IMG/VR virus record: IMGVR_UViG_2541047121_000026
Strand: one strand, 5' to 3'
Length of the DNA: 8,011 nt
From: a virus
Lineage: Duplodnaviria > Heunggongvirae > Uroviricota > Caudoviricetes
The position numbers were made by a program. This document shows positions 6,001 through 8,011 of this stretch, in pieces. Within the stretch, counting starts at the first letter, position 1. The number at the start of each line of letters is the position of its first letter.

Positions 6001-8011
6001 GAGCTTAAAAAACTTCAATTCGATGTTATTCGCCGGATGAATGAAGCTGGTATATACGGCAGAGCCGCCACGCCAACAATAGGTCATCTTGCACGTGTGC
6101 TGTTACGCGAAAGACTGGGCATTGCAACAGGTGAGGCATAACAAATGGCTATCACAGAACGCGAGGCAAGCATCATTAAGGCCATTGGCGAGGAAACAAG
6201 AGACACTATAGCGCCATTGATGGAAAAGATCGCAGAGCTTGAGACACGAATAAACAAGCTGAGTAATGAAGTTGAAGGCCTGATCTCGTTACTCGGTGAG
6301 CAATGACATGGGGGGGGGAGTGTTCCGGCCGGAAAGTCGATCACCCTGGACACCGCCCCCCGTCTCATTCGTAGAAAATTTTGCTTTTCAAAAAAGTTAC
6401 ACGAAAAGTTACACCCCCTCAAAACGAGGTTTTTGCATGGCATTAACGACCAAAAAAAAGCGGTTTGCTGATGCGTTATCAAGGGGCGCAAATCCCACGG
6501 AAGCCGCTATACATGCGGGATACAGCGAAAAGACCGCAAGGGTTAAAGGCTGGCAGCTATCCAACGATCCTGAGGTGAAAAAGTATCTTAAGGCTGTAAC
6601 TTCTGATGTAACTTTTCAGGTTACAAAACCGAAAAAAGTTACAAAGAAAGTTACCGAAAAAGTTACACCGGAACGGGCATCAATTAACACCATTGAGATG
6701 ATGGATAACGGCCTACCCGACCCCATCAAAGCAATGGGCAGGATACTGATTGACAACATGGACACAGATCCAAAACTGGCTTTAGATGCCGCGTTTAAGC
6801 TGGCCCAGTTCACCCACCGCAAGATCGGCAGCATTGGGAAAAAAGAGGTTAAAAAACTCAATGCCGCTAGTGTCTACTCAAATCGGTTCCCCATCCCTAA
6901 GCCACCAACAGACTTAAAACACTGAGGTAGCGAACTATGAGCGAATACATCACAGACCCTATTGATGTACTCACGGAAATCATGAACGACAAGCAGCAGT
7001 CGACCGAAATACGGTTACAGGCCGCCGCTGTTCTGATGCCATATTTTCACGAAACACTAAACCCGTGCTTCCAGGAGGAGGAAGAAGATGATCTGTAAAA
7101 ACATGAAAGGCGTGTCAGCAGTTCGCGCCGCCAGCGTGCTGGCATCGTGTAAATTTAGCCATGCTGACGCTATAGAGATGACGAAAAGAAATGATCCGGC
7201 AGTATCGAAATTTCTTGAAAAATCCATCGTCAACAGAATGACTACGGATAACATGCCGTCGCTGGTGGCAGAGCCGATAGTAAGAGAGCTTGGCGAGTAT
7301 ATTTTTTCGCAGTCTGTACCAGGCAAGCTAATCAGCAGCGCGCTTAATCTTCCGTTTGGCGCAAAATTGCATTCAATATCAGGCAAGGGTAGTAAATGGC
7401 TTAAAGAAGCCGAAGAAATCCCTGTCAAAGAGGGAGAAGTAAACGAAAGTGCGCTAAAATTGTGCAAACTTGGCGCTATTGTGATGCTGAATAACGAGCT
7501 AATCAAATTTAGCACCCCTGGTACAAATTCAGCGATCAGAGACTTGATCACATCGGAATCGGTGAAAGAAATAGATAAAAAATTTCTTTCCAGTGATCAG
7601 GAGGTGGCTGGCGTATCCCCTGAGGGCGTGCTTAATGGTGCTGATGAGGCCGAAAACTTCATAGAGATTTTCAAAAAGCACATAGCGAACGGTAACACGC
7701 TTTCCACGTCGTCGCTAATATTGCCCGTAGAAAACGCCTTACAGCTTACTGATGCTGAGTTCTGGCAGATAGAGCTTTTGAGAATACCGGTAATTGTGAG
7801 CGAACAGGCGGATCGCATGATGCTGATAGACGCTCAAAAGCTGATTATTAACGTTGAAGCCACGGTTATAACCCCAACTGATGAGGCGGTAATAAAAACC
7901 GAATCAGGGGCGGTTAGCCTTTTCCAGAATGACGCTACAGCGTTCAGGGCAATCACCTATTGCGGATGGCAAAAACTCGATAAGGCCGTCACCGTTCTGG
8001 CGAAAAGCTGA

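Follow-up and report, generated by a model that had tools for sequence, protein, structure and literature searches.

A probable HK97-type cos site between a short open reading frame and terS in a PICI-like phage satellite of Escherichia coli O157

The DNA examined here is a stretch of 8,011 nt (the window) from a Caudoviricetes record in IMG/VR (IMGVR_UViG_2541047121_000026), and the element in question occupies the gap between a short open reading frame (ORF) and terS, the gene for a small terminase subunit. The initial annotation had described this gap as an interrupted palindrome with a run of nine Gs and a run of six Cs as its outer arms, an internal GGCCGG, a distance of 75 bp to terS and direct repeats about 30 bp further on, and had offered as its function a lambda-like cohesive-end site or a structured terminator or attenuator. 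Direct reading confirmed all of these sequence features. The GGCCGG lies within CCGGCCGG at 6325-6332, the terS ATG at 6437 stands 75 nt after the C run and 73 nt after the cut predicted below, the first AAAAGTTACA repeat begins 30 nt after the C run, and a repeat search paired arms 6302-6321 and 6350-6369 at 80% complementarity. From left to right the window reads G9, 35 nt ending in TGGACAC, CGCCCCCCGT and then CTCATTCG; a G tract followed after a 30-40 nt gap by ACCGCC is expected 0.01 times in the window. The elements, as we read them, are the following.

6310-6318, + strand: G9 tract, candidate upstream cos element, 35 bp left of the predicted nick.
6319-6346, + strand: spacer, conserved in length and differing in sequence between lineages; holds CCGGCCGG and GATC.
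6347-6353, + strand: TGGACAC, left flank of the predicted cut, with the AC^CG junction at 6353/6354.
6354-6363, + strand: 10-nt 3' cohesive end 5'-CGCCCCCCGT-3', predicted from homology; includes the C6 run at 6356-6361.
6364-6391, + strand: A/T-tract segment CTCATTCGTAGAAAATTTTGCTTTTCAA between cut and repeats, equivalent to the zone of HK97 TerS binding (+15 to +29).
6392-6401 and 6404-6413, + strand: two direct AAAAGTTACA repeats with a 12-bp period, proposed island-specific, cosB-like TerS sites.
6595-6667, - strand (6596-6602, 6608-6614) and + strand (6636, 6648, 6660): five further GTTAC(A) copies inside terS, encoding KKVTKKVTEKVT.

A megablast search of 5900-7100 against a phage collection returned nothing, and homology to cos regions was detected only with a more sensitive blastn, in which window positions 6310-6390 matched the gap between the HNH endonuclease gene and terS of Shiga toxin (Stx) phage 1717, Stx2a_WGPS8 and Salmonella phage FSL SP-016. 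The matched gap is unannotated in the phages and lies at the position that cos occupies in HK97-type phages. The same plan, in which a spacer of 28-30 bp separates a G tract from GGACACCGCCCCCC, was conserved between the HNH gene and terS in about 100 phage loci. Scanning viral contigs for the core GACACCGCCCCCCSTCTCA gave 108 loci, which were classified jointly with the earlier-known loci by tblastn and flanking sequence; one core match (L092) was unrelated and due to chance. Four classes carry the core.

Class A, 59 loci: Stx/Pankowvirus-type phages; G7-13; spacer to GACACC 28-30 nt.
Class B, 34 loci: Salmonella SP-016-type phages; G5-9; spacer to GACACC 29-30 nt.
Class D, 6 loci: Acinetobacter-type phages; G6-7; spacer to GACACC 29-30 nt.
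Island class, 14 copies: G7-10; spacer to GACACC 30 nt.

Contigs truncated at one end aside, the loci of classes A, B and D have an HNH gene on the upstream side and the large terminase gene (terL) on the downstream side; all 14 island copies lack both. Phage classes A, B and D share the conserved motif AGAAAAAATTCCC.TTTCA with the island, and CCGGCCGG is present in the island only, not in the phage classes. These alignments establish homology between the left part of the element (G tract, 30-nt spacer, TGGACAC and CGCCCCCCGT) and the cos region that HK97-type phages have between HNH and terS, which supports the cos-region idea of the initial annotation; the order it gave, with a cleavage element followed by direct repeats and then terS, was also correct.

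The phage records matched by the class B query were all in prophage form and hence uninformative on DNA ends, which were taken from the HK97 family and from Acinetobacter phage fEg-Aba01. In the HK97 family, the plan is a G tract (G9 in HK97, G13 in HK75), about 32 nt, TGAC, CGCCGCCAAA and the genome end. The records of HK97, HK022 and HK75 end after CGCCGCCAAA, those of HK633 and AsXd-1 stop 10 nt earlier, and the last 10 nt of the HK75 record are annotated as the cos site. Published biochemistry gives the HK97 overhang as 10 nt, 3', and maps the TerS site at +15 to +29; cos function in HK97 needs TerL, TerS and the gp74 HNH endonuclease, which stimulates cos cleavage by TerL. In fEg-Aba01, PhageTerm identified the 10-nt 3' end as 5'-CGCCCCCCAT-3', a restriction test with heating and annealing confirmed it, and it is annotated in the record. 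The right end of this genome reads G6, 35 nt ending in GGACAC, then CGCCCCCCAT, so that the G-tract spacing is as in the window; the GGACAC flank is identical, with the mapped end directly next to it, and HK97 has TGAC at this place. The window's CGCCCCCCGT matches CGCCCCCCAT at 8 of 10 positions and also aligns with the HK97 overhang, and in both relatives with mapped ends the 10-nt 3' overhang begins right after (G)AC. Because flank and spacing match the mapped end of fEg-Aba01, the cohesive end is predicted to be 6354-6363, with the C6 run inside it, and we consider it likely that the island is nicked at 6353/6354 on the bottom strand and at 6363/6364 on the top strand. An earlier register of 6352-6361, anchored on GAC...GT, was replaced by this one on the basis of the fEg-Aba01 ends. 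The interval first named as a possible location of cohesive ends was 6310-6361, and the predicted end starts inside it but extends 2 nt beyond it on the right. HK97 and fEg-Aba01 both have the left nick at AC^CG, and several HNH nickases encoded next to cos in phages of Gram-positive bacteria have been reported to nick at this motif; as a pointer to gp74 specificity, this agreement is only a lead. A full-text literature search for the overhang strings returned unrelated papers only. The spacer also contains a GATC (Dam) site at 6339-6342, within (T)CGATC(G) and 12-15 bp left of the predicted nick; (T)CGATC(G) is kept in the island and in classes A and B (L001 ~3030; L003 ~2502), and is not found in class D or HK97.

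The likeness to HK97 extends beyond the cut. Both sites stand immediately upstream of terS, both have a G9 tract upstream of a C-rich 10-nt sequence that follows (G)AC, and both have an A/T tract to the right, where TerS binds in HK97; moreover, the Pfam families of TerL and HNH are common to HK97 and the class A phages that are candidate helpers. The two differ in that 32 nt separate G tract and overhang in HK97 and 35 nt in the island, in the overhang itself, and in the neighboring genes: the HK97 small terminase, gp1, has no Pfam match, whereas class A TerS is a Terminase_2 protein, GTTAC-type repeats are absent from HK97, and the HNH gene that is adjacent to cos in HK97 has no counterpart in the island. 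The phages fEg-Aba01, fLi-Aba02 and fLi-Aba03, which share the mapped ends, are closer, with the identical flank, the 35-nt spacing, and two repeats of 12-bp period followed by a terS whose product is 37% identical to the island TerS. Unlike the island, these are complete phages with HNH and TerL, they infect another host genus, and their repeat is AAAGTTAAAG where the island has AAAGTTACA. The island's site would therefore be of the HK97 type, HNH-dependent with a 10-nt 3' overhang, instead of the lambda-like cos first suggested. A lambda-type site was rejected, as no sequence within two mismatches of lambda cosN (GGGCGGCGACCT) lies in 6300-6440. Elsewhere in the window there is a single near match, GGGCGGCGACCC at 4608-4619 on the + strand; it has one difference from GGGCGGCGACCT and lies in the primase gene, where it encodes TGGDP. 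Such a match arises in 13 of 200 shuffles, and it is probably a coincidence driven by coding sequence. Its relevance is that the E. coli satellite EcCICFT073 uses lambda-like cosN sites.

To the right of the cut, the lineages diverge. Repeats were identified by an unbiased count of 7-mers downstream of the core, done separately for each TerS lineage. In the window, AAGTTAC occurs 8 times (0.84 expected), and 7 of the 8 copies fall within 6394-6666. Measured from the end of the core, the island repeat AAGTTAC(A) is found at +27 and +39, with five more copies in terS at +229 to +293, and the class D repeat AAGTTAAAG (GTTAAAG) is likewise found at +27 and +39, with more copies inside terS at +212 to +265. 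Class A has five copies of GTTAAC between +28 and +150, and class B a single GTAAACATGTTAAC, at the terS start codon. Each TerS lineage therefore has a repeat of its own, GTTACA, GTTAAC or GTTAAAG, at the same offset from the core. The two repeats at 6392-6413 and the cut core were invariant in 12 island copies, and island repeats were identical even where the primase was only 48-64% identical; since they stay constant beside a diverged primase, the repeats are associated with TerS rather than with the replication genes. Island and class A TerS share 51% identity; an N-terminal helix-turn-helix part and a C-terminal part are conserved, and the difference lies in the middle part, which is the part encoded by the in-gene repeats. 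These observations fit a division of labor in which the left module would serve TerL and HNH and the right module TerS, and they favor, with somewhat less assurance than we attach to the cut position, the identification of the island repeats as TerS recognition sites analogous to cosB.

The G tract, with 5-13 bases, is at the same position in all four core-bearing classes and in the HK97 family, and is interrupted in one Klebsiella phage and one Cronobacter phage. Its length varies from G7 to G10 among the 14 island copies, and near-identical strains differ in this segment only by G8, G9 or G10, part of which may be homopolymer sequencing error; whatever its length, the tract has its 3' end at a fixed distance from the cut. 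The N-terminus of the island TerS, MALTTKKKRF, aligns with the N-termini of phage TerS proteins, and this places the terS start codon at 6437 and the G tract outside the gene. From its conservation and position, we take the tract to be a conserved upstream element of HK97-type cos, on the last-packaged side of the cut. A cosQ-like role in cleavage or termination can be put forward only tentatively, and the tract may also be a contact for TerL or HNH.

The genes of the window make up a small island organized like the PICIs (phage-inducible chromosomal islands) of Gram-negative bacteria.

1-1239: tyrosine integrase.
1650-1859: AlpA (PF05930, 7.9e-18).
Listed between AlpA and primase: DUF4222 protein.
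3472-5220: D5-type primase.
Listed between primase and terS: three small ORFs.
6145-6306, + strand: 53-aa ORF, coiled-coil-like, annotated as a hypothetical protein; its stop lies 3 nt before the G tract.
6437-6925, + strand: terS, Terminase_2 small terminase (Pfam PF03592, 1.4e-10; PHROG 641, 1.5e-43).
6937-7098, + strand: 53-aa ORF directly after terS.
7088-8011, + strand: 307-aa HK97-fold capsid-like protein (Pfam Phage_capsid, 1.3e-6; PHROG major head protein).

In a complete O157:H7 chromosome, the island lies between cspD/yljB and clpS. An imperfect 73-nt direct repeat stands at either side, with 8,846 bp from one copy to the other, and we take these copies to be att sites. Integrase, alpA, a D5-type primase, small size and the flanking repeats are all present, and no tail, lysis, portal, terL or HNH genes were found in the island. 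By this gene content, it is read as a phage-parasitic, PICI-like satellite of E. coli O157, of about 8.8 kb. Membership in the capsid-forming PICIs (cf-PICIs), which carry capsid, protease, portal and connector genes plus hnh, terS and terL, was rejected, as the island has terS and one capsid-like gene only and ends about 0.8 kb past the latter. The 53-aa ORF at 6145-6306 sits where the phages have their HNH gene and is 96-100% identical across all island copies, moving with the cassette, and Pfam and PHROG searches found no HNH domain in it. The packaging cassette as a whole (5947-8011: a 64-aa ORF, this 53-aa ORF, cos, terS, the small ORF and the capsid-like gene) is 93-100% conserved, and in different contigs (loci L033, L053, L074 and L075) it is joined to integrases that are 22-100% identical and primases that are 48-100% identical; with such varied partners beside a conserved cassette, the island family is mosaic, and its modules have been exchanged. 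The island-type site was present in 220 of 5,426 complete E. coli genomes (~4%), and the listed carriers are nearly all strains from cattle, meat or humans, mostly O157:H7 with some O103 and O121. A scan of genome contigs with the island TerS found no relatives, and a literature search found no paper describing the island or its cos site.

Other parts of the island deserve mention. The capsid-like gene is the last gene of the island, and its product is 22-25% identical to the capsid part of the helper protease-capsid fusion; it is a candidate capsid-size redirector like Ccm of SaPIbov5, and a helper genome of 50-60 kb is about six times as long as the island. The ORF at 6937-7098 matches positions 89-125 of PHROG 641 'terminase small subunit' (E 3.5e-7) and is 39% identical over 33 aa to residues 94-126 of the Salmonella SP-016-type TerS, with an acidic tail, and has no match to the island TerS, the class A TerS or fEg-Aba01 gp02. 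Its product may be a stand-alone TerS-core mimic, interfering with or poisoning the TerS of another helper. The ~0.8 kb between the capsid-like gene and the right flanking repeat, outside the window (L004 20033-20726), contains several families of direct repeats of 28-88 nt, for which a replication origin or a regulatory array of the island is one possibility.

Because the element lies between two genes of the same strand, and a hairpin of -32 kcal/mol can be drawn from its G9 and C6 runs, we considered that it might be an RNA terminator or attenuator controlling read-through into terS. The RNA folding that had been suggested as a check gave -32.3 kcal/mol with z = -1.44, and 18 of 200 shuffles folded as well; the DNA fold gave z = -0.16. 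Placed on an alignment of seven lineages, the minimum free energy structure had 55.9% paired cells against 54.3% in shuffles (134 of 500 shuffles were as high), and pairing showed no covariation across these lineages, as only invariant G:C columns pair. A scan for terminators on the + strand found no match in the region, an Rfam search with the element returned nothing, and no U tract follows, as had been stated when a canonical intrinsic terminator was first discounted. The inverted repeat is no more than composition gives, and the conserved parts of the element are accounted for by the mapped DNA ends of relatives, so an intrinsic terminator was rejected and we attach hardly any probability to control of read-through. 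Nor do the two runs behave as arms of a twofold-symmetric cosN, since the symmetry center at ~6336-6340 lies ~20 bp left of the predicted nicks and the palindrome CCGGCCGG is specific to the island. With no excess of folding, no covariation and the symmetry off center, the palindrome arises incidentally, from the presence of a G tract close to a C-rich cohesive end. Equally slight is the chance that the G tract is a slipped-strand switch for phase variation, acting by a TerS N-terminal extension or by promoter spacing. Length heterogeneity among assemblies is real, and in the window copy an ORF from a GTG at 6296 to 6925 passes through the tract in frame with terS, as the initial annotation had pointed out; this frame has no coding meaning, since TerS begins at 6437, lengths of 7-10 are not multiples of three apart, and no extension is conserved. 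The same tract stands after the HNH stop codon in phages, some of the variation is possibly sequencing error, and no sigma-70-like promoter consensus was found on the + strand of the region, where there may yet be a promoter of another type. Both an extension through the tract and a phase-variable contingency locus were rejected on these grounds, the latter also in that no conserved ORF crosses the tract.

The AAAGTTAC(A) repeats might alternatively be iterons of an island replication origin, since according to the literature PICI origins are iteron arrays close to the pri-rep gene. The repeats of this island lie downstream of the primase gene, over 1.1 kb from its end, and do not change with the primase. 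In true phages, moreover, a repeat specific to the lineage stands beside terS at an equal distance from the cos core, with any replication gene far away, and we regard an origin here as very unlikely. It is improbable, if less so, that the element is an inert relic, left over from a phage cos in a decayed prophage fragment and with no present role in packaging. The island does lack HNH and terL genes, and its function is a prediction from sequence; yet the intact cassette, joined as it is to varied integrases and primases, points to selection as a module, and the presence in 220 complete genomes, the invariant cut core and repeats, and the complete int/alpA/primase organization between flanking repeats also speak against decay. 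In the reading that we prefer, 6310-6413 and the repeats within terS jointly form cos, the DNA packaging site, of a PICI-like satellite. This is very probable in our judgment, given that it can be aligned with the mapped cos regions of HK97 and fEg-Aba01 in G tract, spacer length, (G)AC flank and C-rich 10-mer, and that it stands immediately upstream of terS. Several points weigh against it: cut position, TerS binding and helper identity are predicted from homology and layout; the HK97 nucleotide alignment is ambiguous by ~2 nt, and only fEg-Aba01 sets the register; a role for the G tract is tentative in all of these phages; the repeats in terS could be kept by the encoded protein instead of by DNA binding; and the island copies are very alike, which makes conservation within the island family weak evidence.

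The element looks functional and would belong to a known kind of feature, an HK97-type cos site in a satellite. In EcCICFT073, a PICI of E. coli, cos1 keeps the cutting module of the helper and replaces the recognition module, so that helper TerL packages the satellite: helper-like cosQ and cosN serve TerL, and a private cosB is read by an Rpp-TerS complex. EcCICFT073 differs from the island in having a lambda-type cos and no terS, with Rpp retargeting the helper TerS; the island encodes a full TerS homologue, and its cos is of the HK97 type. Rpp is reported not to affect HK97. EcCICFT073 is the closest precedent in function, and the island may parasitize HNH-dependent phages of the HK97 type in a corresponding way, using a whole TerS homologue in place of Rpp. 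SaPIbov5 of Staphylococcus aureus is also a satellite of cos phages that need HNH; its cos site is of the helper type, and the Ccm protein that it encodes is homologous to the helper capsid protein. Unlike the island, it is from a Gram-positive host and has no sequence in common with the window, and, as described in papers, it uses the helper's own cos sequence and the helper terminase, with no private repeat set described there.

The phage HNH-cos-terS module was found in 1,254 genomes, and all six island-bearing genomes checked (SS TX 313-1, FRIK2455, F8092B, TX 376-2, strain 472 and OkiPb01693) hold 5-6 copies of it, carried by prophages. TerL follows this module in the phage records examined, and the island encodes neither HNH nor TerL. 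In the packaging scheme that we propose, induction by a helper would lead to island concatemers being cut by helper TerL and HNH at 6353/6354 (bottom) and 6363/6364 (top), leaving the 3' overhang CGCCCCCCGT. Specificity for island DNA would come from the island TerS, which would bind its own repeats and not the GTTAAC repeats of the helper, and its conserved C-terminal part would recruit helper TerL. On the last-packaged side, the G tract would serve cleavage or termination as cosQ does, or would contact TerL or HNH. The cutting region is very probably copied from HK97-type helper phages, and the adjoining repeats are the island's own. A more general version is possible, and we hold it with considerable doubt: HK97-type cos would have a third, undescribed element, a G tract of at least 5-6 bases located 32-35 bp on the last-packaged side of the nick and acting like cosQ or as a docking site for TerL or HNH, and the island would exploit this modular cos by keeping the helper's G-tract and cut module while replacing TerS and its repeats. 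If this is true, such a 'TerS swap' privatizes helper TerL and HNH, and is a strategy distinct from Rpp, Ppi and the cf-PICIs.

These results offer a concrete example of a modular cos, in which a cutting module would be shared and a recognition module private, and the signature of a G tract, ~33-35 bp, and (G)AC followed by a C-rich 10-mer could help to place the ends of HK97-type phages and satellites in sequence records. For a satellite found in ~4% of complete E. coli genomes, they identify a probable packaging signal and hence a probable range of helpers. Among the candidates are lambdoid Stx-converting phages with an HNH gene and a cos of the HK97 type, and the satellite could therefore influence Stx phage production and gene transfer in the strains that carry it.

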